In this document: piece after piece, positions 5,510 through 55,157 of the stretch
How the letters are laid out: each line of letters begins with the position of its first letter
Position numbering within the stretch: position 1 is the first letter of the stretch
From: a bacterium
GTDB lineage: Bacteria > DRYD01
NCBI GenBank assembly: GCA_030549815.1
Contig: JAUQQQ010000006.1
Coordinates: 59,450-123,449 of the forward strand
Direction of reading: 5' to 3'
Length of the DNA: 64,000 nt
Program-made: the position numbers and the translations under genes
The notes under the pieces: model-generated
Told to the model about the DNA's origin: nothing
Seen by the model: only the letters and a program-made list of their open reading frames with translations
The model's database searches: none

Positions 5510-7495
5510 ATGAGTGAAGTCAATTTTGAAAAAACTAAATACCTTAAATACATCGATTACCAAACTATAAAAGATTTAAACTATCAACAAATTTCTGTTT
5601 TATCTCAGGAAATAAGAGATTACATAACGGAGGTTATATATCACAACGGGGGACACTACGGGAGTAATTTAGGAGTTGTTGAACTTACTATCTCTCTTTT
5701 AAGAAATTTTAATCCCCCAACAGATAAAATAATCTTTGATACGTCACATCAATCTTATGTTTATAAAATCTTAACTGACAGGAAAGAAAAATTTAAGACT
5801 TTAAGAACATTTGGAGGGATTTCAGGGTTTTCAAAAATAAAAGAAAGCCAATTTGATCATTTTGGTGCGGGACATGCAGGCACAGGACTCTCTGCTGCTT
5901 TAGGATATGCAAAAGCCAGAGATTTAATGAATTTACAGCATGAAGTTGTATCTATCATTGGAGATGCAGCCCTAACTTGTGGTGTTACTTTTGAAGCTAT
6001 AAACAATATTGGACAATACCCAACAAAAATTATCATTGTTCTAAATGACAATGAATATTCTATAGCAAGGAATGTTGGAGCTATATCAATGTACCTAAAA
6101 AAATTAAGAAATAATCCTTTGGTTTTGAAAGTAGAGGAAAAAATTGACGAAGTATTAACCAAAATGCCTGTTAATAGCGTAATAAAAGAATGGATTAGAG
6201 ATACTAAGAATTGGGTTGAAGAAGGTTTTACTAAGTTGGTTTCCCCTTCACTTGTCGGAATTATCTTTGAGGAATTTGGAATTCAGTATATTGGACCGAT
6301 AGACGGACACGATGTTAAAATGTTAGACGAAGTATTCATGTTTGCTAAATCTTTAAGTAAGCCTGTTATAATTCATGCTATAACCCAAAAGGGTAAAGGT
6401 AATAGTGAAGCAGAAAGCCATTCTGAAAGGATGCATGGAGTTGCCAAAGGAAAAGTAAAACCAGGAAACTTTATTTATTTTAGCACCGATGAAGGGATGA
6501 AAGTGGATGATTTTACAAAAAGCAATAATAAAACTTACACTGAGGTATTTGGAGAATCAATCGTTGAATTGGCAAGAAGAGATGAAAAAATTGTTGCTAT
6601 AACTGCTGCTATGCCATCGGGAACAGGATTAGTAAATTTTTCTAAAATTTTCCCAGATAGATTTTTTGATGTTGGTATAGCTGAGGAACATGCTGTTATA
6701 TTTGCTTGTGGATTAGCTTTACAAGGATTAAAACCTGTCGTTGCTATATATTCAACTTTCTTACAAAGGGCTTTTGATATGTTAATTCATGATGTCGCTT
6801 TGCAAAAAATCCCAATTCTTTTTGTTTTAGATAGGGCGGGAATTGTTGGTGAGGACGGACCTACTCATCATGGAGTTTTTGACATATCTTACTTAAGGAT
6901 GATCCCAAATGTTCAAATTTTTGCTCCATCTAATGAAGTTGAATTAAGAAACATTTTATATACAGCACTCAATAAACTTGAAAAACCAACTTTCATAAGA
7001 TATCCACGGGATTTTGTCGAAGGATTAGAAATCCAAGATTTTCAAAAAATCGATTTATACAAGTGGCAAAAAATTTATGAAACACAGGAAAATAAGTCTT
7101 ACTCTAAAAAAGTAATGATTTTATCAACGGGAAGAATGAGGAGATTTATTAATTCTATTTCCAAAATTTTAGAAGAAAATGATGTGAATTTGAAAGTTTT
7201 CAATTGTATTTCAATTAAACCATTGGATGAAAATGTTTTAATGGATGCTAAGGATTTTGATTTAATCGTTAGTTTAGAAGACAATATATTAGCTGGGGGA
7301 TTTGGAAGTTATATTTTGGAATTCTTAAACGATAACGGAATATTTAAGAAAGTTTTGAGATTTGGATGGAATGATGAATTTATTGAACACGGTGCAATGA
7401 ATGTTTTATTTAATCATTATGGGTTAGAACCTGTAAAAATATCGGAGAAAATATTGGCTGAATTTAATCAGGCTGTTATTATAAAAAGTGGATAA
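5510..7495 (+). CDS. dxs: 1-deoxy-D-xylulose-5-phosphate synthase
   Basis: GGHYGSNLGVVEL, GHAGT, GDAALTCG..EAINN, YIGPIDGH, DVGIAEEHAV, DRAGIVGEDGPTHHG. Confidence 0.97.
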   Translation: MSEVNFEKTKYLKYIDYQTIKDLNYQQISVLSQEIRDYITEVIYHNGGHYGSNLGVVELTISLLRNFNPPTDKIIFDTSHQSYVYKILTDRKEKFKTLRTFGGISGFSKIKESQFDHFGAGHAGTGLSAALGYAKARDLMNLQHEVVSIIGDAALTCGVTFEAINNIGQYPTKIIIVLNDNEYSIARNVGAISMYLKKLRNNPLVLKVEEKIDEVLTKMPVNSVIKEWIRDTKNWVEEGFTKLVSPSLVGIIFEEFGIQYIGPIDGHDVKMLDEVFMFAKSLSKPVIIHAITQKGKGNSEAESHSERMHGVAKGKVKPGNFIYFSTDEGMKVDDFTKSNNKTYTEVFGESIVELARRDEKIVAITAAMPSGTGLVNFSKIFPDRFFDVGIAEEHAVIFACGLALQGLKPVVAIYSTFLQRAFDMLIHDVALQKIPILFVLDRAGIVGEDGPTHHGVFDISYLRMIPNVQIFAPSNEVELRNILYTALNKLEKPTFIRYPRDFVEGLEIQDFQKIDLYKWQKIYETQENKSYSKKVMILSTGRMRRFINSISKILEENDVNLKVFNCISIKPLDENVLMDAKDFDLIVSLEDNILAGGFGSYILEFLNDNGIFKKVLRFGWNDEFIEHGAMNVLFNHYGLEPVKISEKILAEFNQAVIIKSG

Positions 7496-7596
7496 AAAAT
7501 ATAAAAAACCTGATAATCTTTTGTTTTGTAGATTAATCTTTATCTTTAATTAGTAAGGGTTTTTTGTGCATTTTGTTTAAAGAATAAATAGGGGTA

Positions 7597-8046
7597 TTGA
7601 TGATTTTTGATAACTTTTTTTCTAAAATAGTTTTATCTGCTATATTTTTTATCATTTTGTTAGGTATATTTTGGGTTTATTCACCTTATTCAAGTGATAG
7701 AATTTACATGGATTTTCTTAGCCAAATCAAGTTTATCAAAGAAATTGTTATTAATGGTCATTTAGATAACGGAATAATAAAGGATATTTCTAATGTTTTT
7801 AATGTTACCTATTGGGATAAGGATAAAATCATTTTGCTTTCTTCCTATAAGACTGATATAACTCTATATTTAGGAAAGAATATCTATGCTGAGATTAAGA
7901 CTGTTAGTAACGATGGTGTTGTACCTGTTAAAAGTATAGTTGATGTTGATAGTTTTTTAGATGATGGATTACCAAATAGTGGTATTATAAAATCTTTAAG
8001 TTCCAATTATTATTCTGGATGTGTTATTGTCGTGTCATTAAAATAG
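7597..8046 (+). CDS. Small membrane-anchored hypothetical protein, possibly pilin-like
   Basis: N-terminal hydrophobic helix; C-terminal DSFLDDGLPNSG motif. Confidence 0.55.
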   Translation: MMIFDNFFSKIVLSAIFFIILLGIFWVYSPYSSDRIYMDFLSQIKFIKEIVINGHLDNGIIKDISNVFNVTYWDKDKIILLSSYKTDITLYLGKNIYAEIKTVSNDGVVPVKSIVDVDSFLDDGLPNSGIIKSLSSNYYSGCVIVVSLK

Positions 8047-8151
8047 TAATTTAGGTTTTTGAAAAACAGGGTAGTTTTGTTTTTTTGTAGAATATTTTAT
8101 ATTGTAGAGTGTAATGAAAGTAATTTTAAAAGCAATAATGGAGGTTAGTTT

Positions 8152-8532
8152 ATGGCTGTAAAGAGGAAAAAGAAGTTAAAAAAAGTTGGTAGCACGGGAG
8201 TAGCTCATATTCATTCAACGTTTAATAATACGATTATTACTATAACGGATGAGCATGGTAATACGGTAAGTTGGGCAAGTGGTGGAACTGTTGGATATAA
8301 AGGGACGAAAAAAAGCACACCTTTTGCAGCGCAATTGGCTGCAAGGCAGGCTGCTGAAAAGGCAATTCAACAAGGTTTGAAAGAGGTTAAAGTAATTGTC
8401 AAAGGTCCTGGAGTGGGAAGAGAATCTGCGATAAGAGCTCTTAGAGCTGCTGGTTTAGAAATAAGTGATATAAAGGATGCTACTCCGATACCACACAATG
8501 GTTGCAGACCACCTTCAAGAAGAAGAGTGTAA
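8152..8532 (+). CDS. rpsK: 30S ribosomal protein S11
   Basis: [45 protein letters not shown]; SD GGAGG. Confidence 0.99.
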
Positions 8533-8600
8533 TATCACCGCTTGCTGGATAGAAGCGGTATATAAATTATCCAGCCCTTGTGAAAACAAGGAATATAGGA
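8533..8600 (+). promoter_or_regulatory. Structured RNA leader upstream of rpsD (pseudoknot plus GAAA hairpin)
   Basis: ACCGCTT(8537-43)/AAGCGGT(8553-59); GCTGGATA(8544-51)/TATCCAGC(8568-75); CCTTGT-GAAA-ACAAGG(8576-91), just before AGGA and the ATG. Confidence 0.6.
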
Positions 8601-8604
8601 AAAA

Positions 8605-9243
8605 ATGGGTAGATACATAGGTGCTAAATGTAAGCTGTGCAGAAGAGAAGGAATAAAGTTGTATTTGAAAGGGGAAAAATGTTTTACCGATAAATGCCCT
8701 CTGGAAAAAAGAAACTATCCACCTGGGCAACATGGATTTGTTAAAAGAAGACCCAAATTAACTACTTTTGGTGTCAGATTAAGAGAAAAACAAAAAGTTA
8801 GAAGAATATATGGTGTTAGTGAAAAAATGTTTAGAAAATATTTTGATGAATCAAAGAGATTAGCAAGGTTGGGTAAGGGATTTACAGGACAAAACTTATT
8901 AAAAATATTGGAAAGAAGGTTGGATAATGTTTTATATAGAGCAGGAATAGCAGTATCAAGAGCGCAAGCAAGACAAATTATTTCTCACGGATTTGTTTTA
9001 GTTAATGATAAAAATGTTGATATACCATCTTACTTGATTAAAATGGGTGATGTAATAAAATTTAGACCAAAAGTTTTGAATATTATTAAGGATCATTTAG
9101 ATAGTGCTAAAAATTCATTTATCCCTTCTTGGTTAAATGTAGATTTTAATAATCTAACAGTTAAAGTCCTTAGAGAACCGGAAAGAAACGATGTTGAATA
9201 TCCAATAGAAGACAACTTGATCGTCGAATTCTACTCAAGGTAG
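8605..9243 (+). CDS. rpsD: 30S ribosomal protein S4 (zinc-binding C+ type)
   Basis: CKLCRREG..KGEKC...C, PGQHG, LREKQK, LERRLDN, IVEFYSR. Confidence 0.99.
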   Translation: MGRYIGAKCKLCRREGIKLYLKGEKCFTDKCPLEKRNYPPGQHGFVKRRPKLTTFGVRLREKQKVRRIYGVSEKMFRKYFDESKRLARLGKGFTGQNLLKILERRLDNVLYRAGIAVSRAQARQIISHGFVLVNDKNVDIPSYLIKMGDVIKFRPKVLNIIKDHLDSAKNSFIPSWLNVDFNNLTVKVLREPERNDVEYPIEDNLIVEFYSR

Positions 9244-9259
9244 AGGAGGTTAATTAAGT

Positions 9260-10198
9260 ATGCTTACTGTTAATCAAATTAGCACTGGGATATTAGCTAT
9301 AGAGCCTAATTATGGAAGGTTTTTTATAGATAACTTACCTTATGGTATGGGTATTACTATTGGAAATTCCTTGAGAAGGATACTTCTTTCCTATATACCT
9401 GGAGCGGCAATATTTTATGTTAAGATAAATAATGTTTTACATGAATACGAAAGTATAGATGGAGTAAAAGAAGATGTCATTGATATAATTATTAATTTAA
9501 AAAAAGTGAGGTTTAAATATAGGTCAAGCAACAATAGTGAAAAAGTTTTTCTTAATGTTACAGGGCCTGCTGAAGTTAAAGCAAAGGATATAAAATGTCC
9601 TGCTTTGGTTGAAGTGGTTAATCCTGATCAACATATAGCTACTATAACTACAAGTACTGCTTTGACTATTGAAGCTGGTGTAAAGTTAGGGTTTGGATAC
9701 GTCTCTACTGAAGATCAAGTATTGGATGAAGAAGCTAAAGCTATTGGATATATAAAAGTTGATAGCATATTTTCTCCTATAGAAAAGGTCAACTATTACG
9801 TAGAGAATGAGAGGAATGAAAACAATGAACTAATGGATAAATTATATGTTGAAATATGGACGGATGGAAGTGTTTCTCCAAAAGATGCGCTTATAAAAGC
9901 ACTTGGACTCCTTAAAAATTTTGTTGAAAATATAATTAATGGGTACGGTAAGGAGAAAGATCTCATCGAAGAAAGCCATATTTTATCAAGCAGTGGTGAT
10001 ATATTAAGTAAAAATATTAAAGAGTTGAATCTTTCTTCGAGAACTCTGAATTCACTAAAGAGAATAGGTATTAATACTGTGGGTGATTTACTAAAATACA
10101 GTGAAGATGATTTAATTACTATAAGAAATTTAGGTGGAAAATCAATACAAGAAATTAAGCAAAAATTAGAGGAATTAGGGTTAAGCTTAAAAGAATAA
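9260..10198 (+). CDS. rpoA: DNA-directed RNA polymerase subunit alpha
   Basis: GMGITIGNSLRRILL, HEYESIDGVKED, DSIFSPI, WTDGS; CTD LSSRTLNSLKR..RNLGGKS. Confidence 0.98.
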   Translation: MLTVNQISTGILAIEPNYGRFFIDNLPYGMGITIGNSLRRILLSYIPGAAIFYVKINNVLHEYESIDGVKEDVIDIIINLKKVRFKYRSSNNSEKVFLNVTGPAEVKAKDIKCPALVEVVNPDQHIATITTSTALTIEAGVKLGFGYVSTEDQVLDEEAKAIGYIKVDSIFSPIEKVNYYVENERNENNELMDKLYVEIWTDGSVSPKDALIKALGLLKNFVENIINGYGKEKDLIEESHILSSSGDILSKNIKELNLSSRTLNSLKRIGINTVGDLLKYSEDDLITIRNLGGKSIQEIKQKLEELGLSLKE

Positions 10199-10207
10199 AA
10201 AATAAAA

Positions 10208-11125
10208 TTGCGAAAAGAAGTTTTTAACATTATAGAAGATTTTAAGTATTATCTTATTAGTTTAGGGCTTTCCAATAGAACAGTAAGGGAATATATACTC
10301 GATGTAAAAAGATTTTTTGATTATGCAGGTATCAAAACTATAGATGAGAATAATGTTGAAAAAATTATTGCGGCAATCAAGAAATATGTAGTATTTTTGA
10401 AAACAGAAAAAAATTGTTCGAGTAGGGGAATAAATAGGAAAATATCGAGTTTAAGATCTTTTTTTAAATTCCTGTGGAAAGAAAAATTATTTGAAAATAA
10501 CTATTCTGACTTAATTGAGAGTATGAAGACCCCAAAAACTTTACCCAAGGCTATTTCTTTAGAGGATGTTAAAGAAATATTGTCAAGTATTAACTTAGTT
10601 TTTTCAAAAATTTCGCTTAAATATAGAGATTTTATACAAAGTAGAAATAGGTTAATATTTATATTTTTAGTTTTTACAGGTTTAAGGGTTTCTGAATTGG
10701 TAAATGTTAAATTATCTGATTTTGATTTTTCTAATAATACTCTTAAAGTTAAAGGTAAAGGTGATAAGGAAAGAATAGTAATTTTTAGTGATTATGTTAA
10801 AGAAAATCTAAATGATTACTTGAAGCTAAGGGAAAAATTTTGTAGTAGTGATTACATTTTTGTAAGTTTAAGAAAGAAAAAAATAAACGTTAGGACTGTG
10901 CAGTATATTTTTCAGAGGATTTCAAAAATAATTAGTTATAGGTTTAAATTAACACCGCATGTTATGAGGCATACTTTTGCTTCCTTAATGTTGGAAAATG
11001 GTGCTGACATAGTTGCTATTAAGGAATTGTTGGGACATTCTAATTTAAGTACTACACAGATATATACAAAAATTTCAGTTGAACATTTAAAAAAGAATTA
11101 CAAGATTGAAAAGATAAATATATGA
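10208..11125 (+). CDS. XerC/XerD-family tyrosine recombinase
   Basis: [39 protein letters not shown] (R-K-H-R-H-Y catalytic set). Confidence 0.93.
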
Positions 11126-12663
11126 GCTATATAACTTTATACAGAAAATACAGGCCACAAAAATTTTCAGAAGTAATTGGACAGGATATTAGTGTAAAAA
11201 TAATAACAAATTCTATTTTGAAAGAAAATTTTTCCCATTCTTATTTGTTTACTGGGACAAGAGGAACTGGAAAAACAACGGTGGCAAGGATATTCGCAAA
11301 GGCTTTGAATTGTTTAAATAGGCAGGGTTTTGAACCTTGCAATGCTTGTCAAAATTGTATTTCCTTTAATAACGGGAGTTTCCCAGATTGTATAGAAATA
11401 GATGCTGCTTCTAATAGAGGTATAAATGAAATAAAACAAATAAGAGAAAATTTGAAATTGAACCCTATTAAAGACAAGTTCAAAATTTACATAATAGATG
11501 AAGTCCATATGCTTACTATAGAAGCTTTTAATGCTCTCCTTAAAAGTCTTGAAGAACCGCCTTCTTTCGTTGTATTTATCCTTGCTACTACCGATATTCA
11601 TAAAGTTCCGATAACTATACAATCAAGATGTCAAAAAATAGAATTCAAAAAAGTCCATCATAAGATAATATTTGAGCATTTAAAGAGTATTTGTGACAAA
11701 GAGAAAATTGTAATAGATGAAGATGCTTTAATGTTTTTAGCTAAAGCTGCTAATGGATCAGTTAGAGATTCACTTAGCTTATTGGAACAAGTAAGAAATA
11801 TATCTGATAATATTACTTTGAAAGATGTGTTACAAATGTTCTCTGTAGTTTCCTTAAAATGGGTATATGATTATATAAATTTTATCTTGAGGGGTGATGT
11901 AGTTTCTTTTATTGATTTGATCAATAAGGTAAAATTTTACTCTGTTAACCTTTATCAATTTTTGTATATGATTGTTAATGAATTGAAAAATTGTATATAT
12001 TACAAGTTTGTTGGCCCAATAGATGAATTTAGTTCTTTTCAAATAGAAAATTACAAAGGCATTAGTTCTTATGCTAAAATTGAAGATTTGAGAAAGATGA
12101 TGAATTCATTGAATATGATGCTTAATTTTTATAAATCGGAGAATGATTATATACTTTTTGAAATTTATTCTCTTAATTTGATTTTTGAAAGAGGTATACA
12201 GATTGACAAGAAGGAAGAGGAAAAAGTAGAGAAAGAAAAAAAGTTAGAAATTACTGAAACTAAGGAAAATATGGATGTAAAAATGAGAGATAGTAGAGAT
12301 GAAGAACATGATCATACTTTTGATAAAAATAATGAGGAAAATAGTGATTTTCATAAAGATATTAAATCTGTTAAGGAAAAAATATTAAAGATATTCGAGA
12401 ATGATAAATTATTATATAATGCGATTAGTAATGTTGAAGGTGTTCTTGTTGAGGAAGGAAAATTAGTTTTTATTTTTCAATCTAATAAGAAAGATGTTTA
12501 TGTTAAGATATTAAAAAATAAGTCGAGTACTATCGTTGATCGTCTTAAGGATTTGTTTGATATTAATAGCGTTGAAATTAGGGAATTAAAAGGTCAAAAG
12601 ATTACAAAATCTTCAAAAAATTCCCAATTTGAGAGGATTGTGGATTATACAAGGAGAATATGA
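11122..12663 (+). CDS. dnaX: DNA polymerase III subunit gamma/tau
   Basis: [17 protein letters not shown], zinc cysteines, [20 protein letters not shown]. Confidence 0.97.
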
Positions 12664-27195: not shown

Positions 27196-27267
27196 GGGCC
27201 GCTAGCTCAGTGGAAGAGCACTTGCCTTTTAAGCAAGGGGTCCTAGGTTCGATTCCTTGGCGGCCCA
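27196..27267 (+). tRNA. tRNA-Lys (TTT); CCA not encoded
   Basis: GGGCCGC/GCGGCCC acceptor stem, CTTGC-CTTTTAA-GCAAG anticodon arm, GGTTCGATTCC. Confidence 0.95.
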
Positions 27268-27271
27268 CTGA

Positions 27272-28024
27272 TCCTGTATTTTTAGTAGTTACCAAAGAAT
27301 TATAGCCTCCGCTTCCCTCCTCTTCATCTCTCTTCTTTTCCTTCACCCCCTCTTTTTTGTTTTTTTCCTCTCCCTTAAAAATAACTTCTTTAATAACTAT
27401 TATATAGTATTGACAAATTACAATTTCATTGTTTACATTTTTAACAGTTTGTTTGTTTCTTTAATTGGGTCTTTTATTTCCGTTTTAGTTTGTTTTTTAG
27501 CAGCGTATTATTTTTATAAATCAAGATCTGTTTTTTCTAAAATCTTGCTTACTTTAATAATAGTATCTTTTTTATTTCCTCAGGAAGCAAAAGTTATTTT
27601 TAATTTCATCATTATAAAACAATTAAAATTATTGGATAATTTGGTTGCTTTATTTTTACCATTTATTTCTGTTCTTTTTAATTTATTGTTATTTATACAG
27701 GCATTAAGATTTTATTCTTCTGATATAGACGATCAAACAGAATTAGAGGGATTTAATGTGCTCCAAAAAATATTCCTTATTCAAATACCTGTTTTAAAAA
27801 GTTATTTTATAACTGCTTTTATTACAAACTTTCTCAATTTGTGGAATGATTTTTTATGGCCGTTAATAGTTATTCAAAGTGATAAAAAATATACTGTTCA
27901 GGTTGGGATAAACTATATTTCAAAATCACTAATATTCGAACCTTCCTATTTTTCTGCTGCTATTACCATTTCTATTGTTATTCCTATTCTACTCTTTGTT
28001 CTATTTCAAAAATACTTTAAGTAA
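27272..28024 (+). CDS. Carbohydrate ABC transporter permease (MalG/UgpE-like); start codon unresolved
   Basis: YIFNSLFVS, degenerate EAA loop, WNDFLWPLIV, TVQVG, FQKYF. The frame is open from 27272 and includes a TM helix upstream of the tracked TTG at 27410. Confidence 0.8.
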   Translation, partial: SCIFSSYQRIIASASLLFISLLFLHPLFFVFFLSLKNNFFNNYYIVLTNYNFIVYIFNSLFVSLIGSFISVLVCFLAAYYFYKSRSVFSKILLTLIIVSFLFPQEAKVIFNFIIIKQLKLLDNLVALFLPFISVLFNLLLFIQALRFYSSDIDDQTELEGFNVLQKIFLIQIPVLKSYFITAFITNFLNLWNDFLWPLIVIQSDKKYTVQVGINYISKSLIFEPSYFSAAITISIVIPILLFVLFQKYFK

Positions 28025-38993: not shown

Positions 38994-39234
38994 TAAATCA
39001 TTAATTTTTATTTGTAAATCTTGGATTTTTATTCTGTTTATTACTTTTTTCTATTGCTAATACAACAGAGCCTTTAATTAGTATTCCAGAAAAATATGAG
39101 GATAATTTCGATGCTTATAAAGATTATAATACTTTGTTTTTTTAGGATTGCAATGAAAATGTGGTTTAGATATACTATGATGCTTTATCGGGGAGGATTG
39201 TTAATTTATTAAGTAAATAGTATGAACAGGTTAG

Positions 39235-39408
39235 TGGTTTTGCTTTAAAAACATAGATGGAGCTGCCTATAGAGCTATCCAATTAATCACAAATAAAGAA
39301 ATGAGAGAAAGAATGGGAGATTTGGTAAGAGAATACGTCAAAAATAGATTCCTCATAACAAGACACCTAAAAGATTATCTCGTGCTTCTTAATAGATTTT
39401 ATGATTAA
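39235..39408 (+). pseudogene. Remnant of the 3' end of a TreT-like GT4 glycosyltransferase
   Basis: NIDGAAYRAIQLITNKEMRERMGDLVREYVKNRFLITRHLKDYL resembles trehalose synthase TreT C-termini; upstream frame is broken (TAG at 39232). Confidence 0.7.
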
Positions 39409-39439
39409 AACAAAAGATAAAAAAAGGATAATTATCTTT

Positions 39440-47226: not shown

Positions 47227-47528
47227 GAAATCAAATATTTAACAAAAATATCTTATTATATTAAAATGTTTTAGATTTGTTTTTGTTAGGGAGTAATAGA
47301 ATTTTTGTATAAAATAAGAACTTTCTTTTATGTAGCTTTGTTGTGAAAAAGTATAAAAAAGATAAAGATTTTATTTAATATTAGAGCAAATATTAAAAAA
47401 ATGTTCTAAATAAAATTTATAAAATATTTTTAAAAAACTTTATAAAAATATTTATAAAAAAAATTTTATAAAAAGAAGGAAGGAATTTTTGATAAAAATG
47501 TATAAATATAAAATAGGAGGTGATAAAA

Positions 47529-49346
47529 ATGCCAAAAGCAGTAGGAATAGATTTGGGAACCACTAACTCAGTTATAGCTTATAAAGATGCTTCTGGAAAT
47601 GTTGTTGTTATACCCAATGCCGAAGGATCAAGGTTAACACCATCAGTCGTTTCCTTCAAAGATAATGAAATAATCGTTGGAGAGCATGCAAAAAGAAGAG
47701 CAATCCTAAATCCTGAAAACACTGTAATATCAATTAAAAGAAAAATGGGGTCTGATTATAAGGTAAGAATTGAAGGAAAAGAGTATACACCCGAACAAAT
47801 ATCTGCTTTTATTCTACAAAAACTAAAAAGAGACGCAGAAGCATATTTAGGAGAACCAATCCAAGACGCTGTTATTACCGTACCTGCATATTTTAATAAC
47901 CCCCAAAGAGAAGCAACAAAAAACGCAGGAATTATAGCAGGATTTAATGTTTTAAGAATAATTAACGAACCTACAGCAGCAGCACTGGCTTATGGGTTAG
48001 ATAAACAAGATCAAGTACTAACAGTTTTAGTGTTTGACTTAGGAGGAGGAACATTTGACGTATCAGTCTTAGAAATAGGACAAGGAGTTTTCCAAGTTAA
48101 AGCAACTGCAGGAGACAACCACTTGGGTGGAGATGACTGGGACCAAAAAATTATTGACTGGATACTTGAAGAATTCCAAAAAGAACACGGAATAAATTTG
48201 AGAAATGAAAAAGCTTCAATGCAAAGAATTAGAGAAGCAGCAGAAAATGCTAAAAAAGAACTATCTATTAAATTAGAAACTGAAATAAACTTACCATACA
48301 TATATGCCGATGAAAAAGGTCCAAAACATATTCAACTTAAATTAACAAGAGCAAGATTTGAAGAAATGTCTAAGGATCTTATGAAAAGGTTAGAAGAACC
48401 ATGCAGAAGAGTCTTGGATGACCTTAAAATAACTCCAGACAAAATAGATAGAGTTTTACTTGTTGGTGGATCTACTAGAATGCCCATGGTTCAAGATTTT
48501 GTCAGAAAATTCTTTGGAAAAGAGCCTGCAAAAGATATAAATCCTGATGAAGCTGTCGCTATTGGTGCAGCAATCCAAGCATCAATCATTAAAGGAGAAA
48601 CCAAAGATATCGTCTTAGTTGATATTACTCCTCTTTCCTTAGGTGTTGAAGTTATGGGTGGAATGACTCACGTATTGATACCAAGAAATACACCAATACC
48701 AACACAAAAATCTGAAATATTCACAACTGCAGCAGATTTCCAAACTAATGTTGAAGTACACGTCGTGCAAGGTGAAAGAGCAATGGCTAAAGATAATATA
48801 TCATTAGGTAGATTTATACTTTCTGATATACCTCCTGCACCAAGGGGAATACCACAAATTGAAGTAACCTTCGAAATAGATGCAAATGGAATATTAAACG
48901 TAACTGCTAAAGATAAATCCACTGGTAAATCACAAAAGATAACAATAACCGGAGCTACAAAACTATCAAAAGAAGATATAGACAGAATGATCAAAGATGC
49001 ACAGCAGTATGCGGAACAAGATAGAAAATATAGAGAATTAGTTGAAGCAAGAAATAGATTGGATCATATCATTTACTTGTCAGAAAAAGCTCTAAAAGAA
49101 TATCAGAATGCGGATCCAAATTTAAAATCAGAACTAGAAAAAGAAATACAAGAAGCCAAAAACATAATGAATTCTGAAGATATAAGTTTAATAAATAGAC
49201 AAGTTGATAGGTTACAAATGGCATTGTCTAAATTCTCTTCGAGTGCTTACGCTGCTACTGGTGCAGCAGCCGGTGCAACAGCAAGCTCAACTGAAGGACA
49301 ATCTACATCTGAAAATACTCAACAAAACTATAAAATAGAAGATTAA
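47529..49346 (+). CDS. dnaK: Chaperone DnaK
   Basis: [39 protein letters not shown]; ATG at 47529 follows AGGAGGTG. Confidence 0.99.
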
Positions 49347-49353
49347 TGAAAAT

Positions 49354-49380
49354 AGAAGGGGGGCTTTTAGCCCCCCTTCT
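49354..49380. terminator. Intrinsic terminator hairpin, probably bidirectional, between convergent dnaK and gdhA
   Basis: AGAAGGGGGGCT-TTT-AGCCCCCCTTCT, a perfect 12-bp stem. Confidence 0.85.
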
Positions 49381-49411
49381 TGTAAAAATTTCCCAAAAAC
49401 CTAATTTTTTT

Positions 49412-50797
49412 CTATGGGAAAATACCCAACTGACTGTATGAAACACTTATTTTTTCTAAAGCTAAAACAAATGCCGCAGTTTTCAAATCTATGTTTTTCT
49501 CTTCAGCTTTCTGAATTATGTTATTAAAACCACTAACCATACTTTCATAAAGCCCTGATCTCACTATATCTTCTTCTGAAAAACCGTTTAGGATATTTTT
49601 GTATTCAATTTTTTTGCCTGTTATTTTCTCGATTTCTTTTATAAGGTTAATATTATTTTGTTCTCTTAATCTCTTTTCTAATCTCCCAAATCTAACATGA
49701 GAGAGATTTTTTAAGTATTCAAAATAGGATACTGTTACTCCTCCTGAGTTAAAGAGAATATCTGGTATTATAAGTTTTTCATTTACTAATTTGTAGTGTG
49801 CTTTAAATGTAGTAGGACCATTTGCCGCTTCTGCTATTATCTTTGCTTTGATTTTTTCTATATTGTCCTCATTTATAACATTTTCTAAAGCGGCAGGTAT
49901 TAGTACATCGACTTCTAAAAACAATGAATCATTGGGATTAGGAGAAGAATTCTTTGTAAATCCCAAAACTCCACCTTTTTCCTTGCTGTACTCATACAGT
50001 TTATCTACATCTATTCCATTTTCATCGAATACTGTTCCTGTTATATCTGATATAGCTACTATTTTTATTTTTTTATCAAATAAAAATTTAGCTAAGTAGT
50101 ATCCTACATTACCAAATCCTTGGATTGATACGGTAATATCCTCTATATCTTTTTCTACGTTGAATTTCTTGAGAATATCTTTTCTTTCATTAAAAAGATA
50201 TTCTATTACGTAGAACGCACCTAATCCTGTGGCGTATTTTCTTCCTCTAATTCCTCCTTGTTCTATTGGTTTTCCTGTTACGCATGCTAAGTAATCTACT
50301 TCTCTGTTAGATAAAGTAGCGTAGGTATCAAGTATCCAAGCCATTTCTCTTTCTCCGGACCCCATATCTGGTCCTGGTACGTCTATAGCTGGACCTATAA
50401 AATTTTTCCTATACAATTCAAAAGTATATCTTCTTATTATTTTTTCAAGTTCGTTTAATGAATATTTCTTGGGGTTTATTTTTATCCCACCCTTTGCTCC
50501 TCCAAATGGTATATCCATTATTGCACATTTATAACTCATCAAAGCGGATAGTGCCATCACTTCATCTAAATTAACATCTTCACTTATTCTAATTCCGCCT
50601 TTTGTGGGTAATTTATGAAAGCTATGTTGTGCTCTCCATCCATATATTGTTTCTATTTCCCCATTATCTCTTTTTATAGGAAAGGTTATACTTAAAACAG
50701 ATTTGTACTGTTTTATTAAATCAAGTAATTTTTTGTCAGTTTTTACATAATTTGTTGCATAATCTATGAATGAATTAACTTCCTTAAAGAAGCTCAC
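49412..50797 (-). CDS. gdhA: Glutamate dehydrogenase (Glu/Leu/Phe/Val family)
   Basis: KGGIR, PFGGAKGG, DVPGPD, TGKP..GG..GR, QGFGNVG, EAANGP, GGVTVSYFE. Confidence 0.95.
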   Translation of the reverse strand: MSFFKEVNSFIDYATNYVKTDKKLLDLIKQYKSVLSITFPIKRDNGEIETIYGWRAQHSFHKLPTKGGIRISEDVNLDEVMALSALMSYKCAIMDIPFGGAKGGIKINPKKYSLNELEKIIRRYTFELYRKNFIGPAIDVPGPDMGSGEREMAWILDTYATLSNREVDYLACVTGKPIEQGGIRGRKYATGLGAFYVIEYLFNERKDILKKFNVEKDIEDITVSIQGFGNVGYYLAKFLFDKKIKIVAISDITGTVFDENGIDVDKLYEYSKEKGGVLGFTKNSSPNPNDSLFLEVDVLIPAALENVINEDNIEKIKAKIIAEAANGPTTFKAHYKLVNEKLIIPDILFNSGGVTVSYFEYLKNLSHVRFGRLEKRLREQNNINLIKEIEKITGKKIEYKNILNGFSEEDIVRSGLYESMVSGFNNIIQKAEEKNIDLKTAAFVLALEKISVSYSQLGIFP

Positions 50798-54348: not shown

Positions 54349-55140
54349 TTAAGCAGGTATTGGTAGAGGGGGATTATATCCTGTTACTGTATAATACATT
54401 TTATCCCAATGTGTTGATGTTGTAAAATCTGTTTTTGCGTATTCGTATGGTCTTGGGTTAAGTGGCATTTCCATAGATACTCCATGTGCATGAGGATATT
54501 CTTGATTATGATAATTCTGTATTACATATTCTTTTAATTTTTCCATTGTTTTGGAGGCTTTTTCTTTTATTTCTTGATTTACATTGGATTTTTGCAATGA
54601 TTCTAAGAAGTGTCCTAAATCTCTGTATCCCATATAAAATTTTTGTGTGTTTATAAAGATTTGCCTTATTGTTGGGAAATATTCAGAGTATTTAAGTATG
54701 GTTAATGATAGTTCATCTATGCTTTTGGCTAATTCTTCTGATTTTGATAGATTGACAGCTAATAATGTTCTTATCGAAGGAAAATCTATAGATGATTTGA
54801 CAATTTTTTTAGCTGGAGTTTCTGGTATATTTTCATCCTCGTAATTAACGTAGTTTTTTAGCTAATATCCAACCTCAAACATTCCTATTAAGTATGAGTC
54901 CCATCCTAAGATATCTATTTTTTTTGCCTTCTATTTCAGTTAATTTTTTTAAGCTTCTTTAATTTGTTTGAGTTTCATGTTTCTAATATAGGTATTATGT
55001 CGTCTATTGCACTTTGTCATCCTGTGTCATGATCTGATATTATTACCATAACATTTTTAGAGAGAATTTATTTATTATTTCTCCTATTTTTTAATCATAA
55101 AATCGAGGTCTGCCATATTTACATTTCCCAATTGGATATG
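54349..55140 (-). pseudogene. Degraded clostripain (peptidase C11) family gene
   Basis: Fragments GNVNMAD, MVIISDHDTG*, IDILGWDSYLIGMFEVGY*LK, YRDLGHF, AHGVS..P separated by stops and frameshifts. Confidence 0.75.
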
Positions 55141-55157
55141 TAAAATTTTTGTGAAAA

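Follow-up and report, generated by a model that had tools for sequence, protein, structure and literature searches.

In Escherichia coli, ribosomal protein S4 is the repressor of the alpha operon; its target is a pseudoknot located at the ribosome-binding site of rpsM and its mechanism is entrapment, and both a conformational switch and entrapment of the 30S subunit have been described for this operator (PMC10931766). In Bacillus subtilis, autorepression by S4 through the leader of its own gene, rpsD, has been demonstrated experimentally (PMC3849166). These two systems are the precedents that a sequence-only reading of the locus described here had named, and the cited passages agree with that account. 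A survey of ribosomal protein leaders counts two experimentally confirmed S4 leaders and four candidates (PMC7247131). The new S4 motifs are described there as lacking meaningful similarity to one another, save for a partial resemblance between those of Firmicutes and Fusobacteria, and the GUAA of the Firmicutes leader, which imitates rRNA, is also present in the Fusobacterial leader (PMC7247131). For the candidates from Bacteroidia and Flavobacteria, the regulated genes are given as rpsD, rpoA and rplQ (Table 1 in PMC7247131), so these candidates sit immediately upstream of rpsD; S4 is their presumed ligand, since it is a known repressor. More generally, most of the regulatory RNAs of E. coli ribosomal proteins are reported to be narrowly distributed to Gammaproteobacteria (PMC3616713), and the r-leader motifs of Eckert and Weinberg have been included in Rfam since releases 14.1 and 14.3 (e.g. 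S4-Clostridia, RF03140; PMC7779021). A literature search for an rpsK-rpsD pseudoknot, or for newer S4 leaders, found nothing beyond the papers cited here.

An isolated rpsK-rpsD-rpoA trio

The locus lies in a 64,000-nt stretch of bacterial DNA, referred to below as the window, and consists of three genes, all on the plus strand. The first gene of the cluster is rpsK, coding for ribosomal protein S11 (ORF 8152-8532; Pfam Ribosomal_S11, E = 5e-48), which ends with a TAA stop codon at 8530-8532. It is followed by a 72-nt spacer that also constitutes the rpsD leader (8533-8604), by rpsD, coding for S4 (8605-9243; Pfam Ribosomal_S4 and S4 domain, N-terminus MGRY...), and by rpoA (9260-10198; Pfam RNA_pol_A_bac, RNA_pol_A_CTD and RNA_pol_L). 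S4 is the presumed ligand of the spacer and rpsD the presumed regulated gene. The trio stands isolated in its surroundings (window 5510-12663) and thus represents a broken alpha operon: dxs and a 149-aa ORF without a family are found 5' of it and a XerC/D-like recombinase gene and dnaX 3' of it, and neither rpsM nor rplQ was found among the ORFs and Pfam matches of the neighbourhood, with no rpsM 5' of rpsK.

The ATG of rpsD is located at 8605 and, because a TAG at 8596-8598 shares its reading frame, the start of S4 is fixed at this position and an N-terminal extension of the protein is ruled out. Upstream of the start codon, an AGGA Shine-Dalgarno (SD) sequence can be read (8597-8600), which is weaker than the SD sequences of rpsK (GGAGG, 8140-8144) and rpoA (GAGGAGG, 9243-9249). 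Because the SD of rpoA overlaps with the stop codon of rpsD (9241-9243), translation of rpoA may be coupled to that of rpsD. The S4 protein has four cysteines near its N-terminus (residues 9, 12, 26 and 31; window 8605-8700), which we take to be the zinc-ribbon type of S4.

Helices of the rpsK-rpsD spacer

The sequence-only reading had described a 7-bp stem, the loop of which is complementary over 8 bp to a downstream segment reached through an 8-nt A/U linker, and these parts were recovered exactly. All of them lie on the plus strand. Stem-loop S1 (8537-8559) pairs ACCGCTT (8537-8543) with AAGCGGT (8553-8559) in a 7-bp stem that closes a 9-nt loop (8544-8552); its arms are 100% complementary in an inverted-repeat search, it is found in the minimum free energy (MFE) fold, and alone it has a free energy of -9.7 kcal/mol. 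Helix S2 (8544-8575) is made up of GCTGGATA (8544-8551) and TATCCAGC (8568-8575), which form 8 bp with 100% complementarity, with energies of -10.0 kcal/mol as a nested hairpin and -12.7 as a duplex. S2 takes up eight of the nine bases of the S1 loop, and S1 and S2 therefore cross in a pseudoknot topology. The linker ATATAAAT (8560-8567), which reads as 8 purely A/U nucleotides, would be loop L3 and cross the S1 minor groove if the pseudoknot forms. The last helix, hairpin H3 (8576-8591), consists of CCTTGT (8576-8581), a GAAA loop and ACAAGG (8586-8591). It has 6 bp and an energy of -8.0 kcal/mol, is present in all low-energy folds and abuts the S2 3' strand with zero nucleotides in between. 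Both the sequence and the inverted-repeat search also bear out the earlier placement of its end 5 nt (AATAT) before the AGGA.

The start-codon segment (8606-8615, plus strand) has two alternative weak partners in the MFE and suboptimal folds, with the pairings 8568-8573/8606-8611 or 8533-8539/8608-8615. It also resembles the S1 loop, as 6 of 7 bases are identical between 8546-8552 and 8606-8612, a likeness that is only suggestive given a chance probability of about 0.04 by rough estimate. S1, S2 and H3 are free of G-U pairs, so RNA and DNA, or plus and minus strand, are not separable from sequence alone, and the minus strand folds equally well. A segment of the rpsK coding region (8465-8471) is perfectly complementary to 8532-8538 (7 nt), overlapping the first two bases of S1; this pairing could compete with S1 when rpsK is untranslated.

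In an H-type pseudoknot, loop 1 runs across the major groove of stem 2, the last loop runs across the minor groove of stem 1, and stems joined by at most 1 nt stack coaxially (PMC6007934). Here, the 5' strand of S1 is followed immediately by that of S2 (L1 = 0), the junction is 1 nt (G8552) and the last loop consists of the 8 A/U nucleotides, and with L1 = 0 a full H-type knot of 7 + 8 bp would be sterically strained. At least 1-2 nt are needed to span 6-8 bp, and a full 8-bp S2 would therefore be incompatible with a full S1, while a knot with S2 shortened to 6-7 bp is plausible. The stack sums are -14.3 kcal/mol for S1 and -15.7 kcal/mol for the full S2, or -10.2 and -12.3 kcal/mol when S2 is reduced to 6 and 7 bp, respectively; together, the sums of S1 and S2 would exceed the pseudoknot penalty of about 9.6 kcal/mol in the Dirks-Pierce model.

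The sequence-only reading had also considered that the two stems could be alternative conformations of a switch. When S1 and S2 are each folded as a nested hairpin, their energies are practically the same (-9.7 vs -10.0 kcal/mol), and an L1 of zero nucleotides speaks against both being complete at once, so this part of the earlier account stands as a possibility beside the knot. When the start region is included in the folding, two families of folds are found within 0.7 kcal/mol: one combines S2, H3 and the pairing 8533-8539/8608-8615 (-21.6 kcal/mol) and leaves the start codon open, and the other combines S1, H3 and the pairing 8568-8573/8606-8611 (-20.9 kcal/mol), which covers part of the AUG. 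Given the footprint of a ribosome, one that terminates at the rpsK stop codon would be expected to open S1, the 5' strand of which begins 5 nt downstream.

How far the arrangement departs from chance was assessed in several ways. The GC content is 0.375 for the spacer and 0.436 for its core (8537-8591) vs 0.286 for the window, so that the GC enrichment noted before in this AT-rich genome is real and modest. None of the other 19 intergenic regions of at least 40 nt surveyed up to position 55157 is as GC-rich as the spacer (0.13-0.35), and among the 20 its energy per nucleotide is the second lowest, behind the convergent-gene hairpin at 49347-49411. The nested MFE of the spacer is -18.3 kcal/mol (z = -3.2; -3.2 to -3.6 across runs), and none of 200 shuffles folds as well. 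Equally good folding is found in 60 of 7104 sliding 72-nt windows, which places the spacer in the top 0.84%, and the best 25 of these 60 mostly represent the three tRNAs and the probable terminator at 49347. A perfect hairpin of at least 7 bp combined with a loop pairing of at least 8 nt downstream was obtained in 0 of 100,000 dinucleotide shuffles of the spacer, which makes chance a poor explanation; 7 of these shuffles attain 7/7 and 137 attain 6/6. Across the whole window and both strands (128 kb), two loci have the 7/8 arrangement, namely the rpsK-rpsD spacer and a low-complexity site at 39413 that is composed of A/T only. No second copy of the spacer element was found in the window with up to 3 mismatches, and a repeat or mobile element is therefore rejected. 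Equally, neither a sigma-70-like promoter nor an intrinsic terminator was found in the spacer, and its reading as such an internal site is dismissed. In our judgement, a real, selected RNA structure at 8533-8604 is very likely.

Several other structures and gaps were noted in the window. The hairpin at 49347-49411 is its strongest local structure (-27.6 kcal/mol in 72 nt; z = -5.9 and -7.2 on the two strands); it sits between a dnaK-like gene (47520-49346) and a convergent glutamate dehydrogenase gene (49412-50797) and is probably a bidirectional terminator. A 142-nt region (27268-27409) that follows a tRNA (27196-27267) and precedes an ABC-type permease gene is also structured on the plus strand (z = -3.7), with no Rfam match at the gathering threshold. 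Two long intergenic regions, 38994-39439 (446 nt), within which the A/T-only site at 39413 falls, and 54634-55157 (524 nt), lack ORFs of at least 90 aa as well as Rfam matches, and their folding is unremarkable.

Relation to known S4 leaders and other rpsK-rpsD spacers

A cmscan search of the whole window against all 4227 families of Rfam 15 at the gathering threshold returned three tRNAs only, and no match was obtained for region 8050-8750 even at E <= 10, so the element is not a known Rfam family. The sequence-only reading had named a match to an existing family as the result that would remove the novelty of the element, and this search returned no such match. In their position, the Bacteroidia and Flavobacteria candidates are the closest described systems: here, too, the element is found directly 5' of rpsD, with rpoA downstream and inside an operon. 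As in these candidates, it is compact, hairpin-based and presumably lineage-restricted, and S4 is the presumed ligand. In contrast to the Bacteroidia and Flavobacteria motifs, which are simple hairpins by description, it combines the pairing of a loop with a downstream segment and a second hairpin; it also differs in that rplQ is missing downstream, that cmscan gives no match at E <= 10 and that it comes from a single sequence. If real, the element would join the lineage-specific S4 leaders with a new fold, set apart from the Bacteroidia and Flavobacteria motifs by the cmscan result and by their description.

The E. coli alpha-operon operator is a pseudoknotted mRNA element tied to S4. For the spacer, a link to S4 is proposed, the non-random crossing complementarity of 7 and 8 perfect base pairs would give a knot strained by its L1 of 0, and the two near-isoenergetic computed conformers are reminiscent of the switch of that operator. 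However, the E. coli operator is located at rpsM and includes the rpsM ribosome-binding site, whereas the element described here is located in the rpsK-rpsD spacer and ends at 8591, before the SD and the ATG; it is thus neither in an rpsM 5' leader nor does it contain a ribosome-binding site. The family of the E. coli operator, which we take to be Alpha_RBS of Rfam, gives no cmscan match to the spacer. Like the B. subtilis leader, the spacer would control rpsD itself and nothing upstream of it. Unlike the Firmicutes and Fusobacteriales leaders, it has no GUAA (no GTAA in 8533-8604), no likeness to 16S rRNA and no cmscan match. As many as 268 of 300 shuffles match E. coli 16S rRNA, used as a stand-in for that of the host, locally as well as the spacer does, and sequence mimicry of rRNA is rejected on this shuffle-level match.

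For a wider comparison, S4 peptide patterns, including the near-universal NYPPGQHG, were used to draw at least 80 loci from many phyla, with S4 identities of 46-54%, from among at least 600 matching stretches. The S11 gene precedes the S4 gene in 79 of the 80 listed loci, and the 79 rpsK-rpsD spacers from these other phyla are 5-215 nt long (median 26), with 12 of at least 72 nt; the 72-nt spacer of the window is longer than 67 of the 79. A folding z of -2 or below was obtained for 3 of the 24 spacers from other phyla that are at least 40 nt long and without N, so a structured element at this position is not the rule. Resemblance to the window element was found in none of the 79 distant spacers (S4 46-54% identical). 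Two single-sequence covariance models, one of S1 and H3 and one of S2 and H3, were run over the window and the 80 loci and gave 6 matches each at E <= 10, of which the self-match alone was significant (109 bits); the remaining 5 per model have E >= 0.2 and are mostly located outside rpsK-rpsD spacers. The nearest match other than the self-match (L009 2927-2987, E = 8.8) begins at the end of rpsK and reaches into the spacer behind it. Among the best 120 S4 protein clusters listed, 11 are 75-95% identical to the S4 of the window, 2 are 61-62% identical and 106 at most 59% identical. None of the three ORFs that span the spacer was found in the protein collection by exact-sequence look-up.

Some of the distant spacers carry structures of their own. 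Four rpsK-rpsD spacers of 109-124 nt from Thermoanaerobaculia/Acidobacteriota (L023 2878-3000, L029 2892-3000, L036 2468-2582 and L038 2877-3000) contain a near-invariant two-stem core in which a GUAAA internal loop faces a purine-rich strand. RNAalifold predicts 25 pairs for them, 3 with double changes, the core stems being invariant, and none of the four has an Rfam match at the gathering threshold. The best local E. coli 16S match of L023 and L036 is at 442-462 and is equalled by 60 and 11 of 300 shuffles, respectively; these spacers may belong to an undescribed rRNA-imitating S4 leader, for which the 16S match is only suggestive. Significant folding was also seen in spacers from Nitrospirae (L014 606-703, z = -2.6), Anaerolineae (L025 2906-3000, z = -4.2) and Thermoflexus (L064 2804-3000, z = -6.7), and the long spacers of two uncultured deltaproteobacteria (L050 2863-3000 and L053 2878-3000) have a common sequence block. 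No Rfam match at the gathering threshold was found for any of these five spacers.

Possible functions of the spacer

The best reading of the spacer, which we put forward tentatively, is that of a lineage-specific S4 autoregulatory operator acting on translation. It is based on the position before rpsD with rpoA behind, as in the Bacteroidia and Flavobacteria candidates, on the weak AGGA beside strong SD sequences, and on S4 being a repressor with unrelated operators. In the proposed model, S1 would fold first during transcription, and its loop would then pair with 8568-8575 to give an H-type pseudoknot, in which the absence of an L1 would probably limit S2 to 6-7 of its 8 pairs, with the A/U linker running along S1. 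Since the GAAA hairpin H3 directly follows the S2 3' strand, the three helices would meet just 5' of the weak AGGA. S4 present in excess of free 16S rRNA would bind to this helix junction and block or trap the 30S subunit at rpsD, and rpoA would follow by translational coupling through its SD overlapping the rpsD stop codon. As to the S4 autoregulatory leader proposed from sequence, its anatomy, non-random nature, single copy and location at a known S4-leader position hold up, and formation of the knot, S4 as the ligand and repression of translation by binding are the parts that we infer. Counting against an S4 operator are that 5 nt separate the end of the element from the SD and the start codon is left outside, that the structure comes from one sequence, with a strained L1 of 0 and no G-U pair to tell strand and molecule, and that it has no likeness to any known S4 site by cmscan (E <= 10), GUAA or 16S comparison.

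The same features can be accounted for in other ways. The spacer could be an mRNA stability or processing element, in which an endonuclease cuts the A/U linker or a flank of the spacer, the rpsK segment is shielded at its 3' end by the S1/S2 knot and the rpsD-rpoA segment at its 5' end by H3, and the two parts of the operon acquire different half-lives, all without feedback by a protein. Hairpins between cistrons are known to determine mRNA stability in bacterial operons, and such a role would suit the stable helices on either side of an 8-nt pure A/U stretch, a structure that ends before the SD instead of covering it, and a spacer in which the Rfam and 16S comparisons reveal no known S4 motif. 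We nevertheless consider it unlikely: a protective hairpin needs no 8-bp complement between its loop and a downstream segment, an arrangement seen in none of the 100,000 shuffles, and differential decay would have no obvious purpose for S11 and S4, since both are required in equal amounts. The spacer could also be a switch driven by ribosomes. A ribosome terminating at 8530-8532 would unwind S1 and free 8544-8551 to capture 8568-8575 in S2, whereas 8568-8575 would otherwise pair weakly with the start segment at 8606-8611, and rpsD would be coupled to rpsK translation with no involvement of S4. The near-equal energies of S1 and S2 (-9.7 and -10.0), the two fold families within 0.7 kcal/mol, of which one has the start codon open, the 6 of 7 bases common to the S1 loop and the start segment, and the L1 of 0, which disfavours full coexistence of S1 and S2, are all in line with such a switch. 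However, masking of the start by pairing gains only about 3 kcal/mol, too little to shut initiation, the 6/7 likeness may be fortuitous at its roughly estimated probability of about 0.04, and H3 is given no role, which together make this explanation quite improbable.

That the inverted repeats act on DNA, as a transcription factor operator, or serve at the RNA level as the binding site of a different protein, is in our view very unlikely. Each of the three is a perfect palindromic repeat free of G-U pairs, folding is as good on the minus strand, and arm spacings of 9 and 16 bp would be compatible with dimeric DNA-binding proteins, but the surrounding genes form an operon and all run in one direction, no promoter-like site was found in or beside the spacer, and overlapping repeats in a knot topology are typical of RNA and not of operators. 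Chance complementarity without function, picked out by scanning 64 kb for pairing, is most improbable, although one sequence only is at hand and a scan for perfect matches yields one more 7/8 site in the window; this other site is A/T only, the 7/8 arrangement is reached by 0 of 100,000 shuffles of the spacer, and for this genome the spacer stands out by its length, GC content and stability.

The S4 operator could also be of a kind of its own. It would then represent a new structural class, in which a compact H-type pseudoknot stacked on a GNRA hairpin is bistable and binds S4, is reset by translation termination at rpsK and is locked in one conformer by S4; we regard this more specific proposal as rather unlikely. 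If it were true, an uncultured deep-branching lineage with a broken alpha operon would unite translational coupling and autogenous feedback in 55 nt. The host lineage is known from metagenome-assembled genomes only, and outside a small clade its S4 is at most 62% identical to the proteins among the matches listed. Should the spacer be merely a stability element or a coupling device, it would be an ordinary one. At a length of about 55-90 nt, the element lends itself to direct binding assays and structural studies. Convergent evolution has a standard example in the S4 leaders, and a seventh, pseudoknotted one would give another independent solution to the recognition of RNA by S4.
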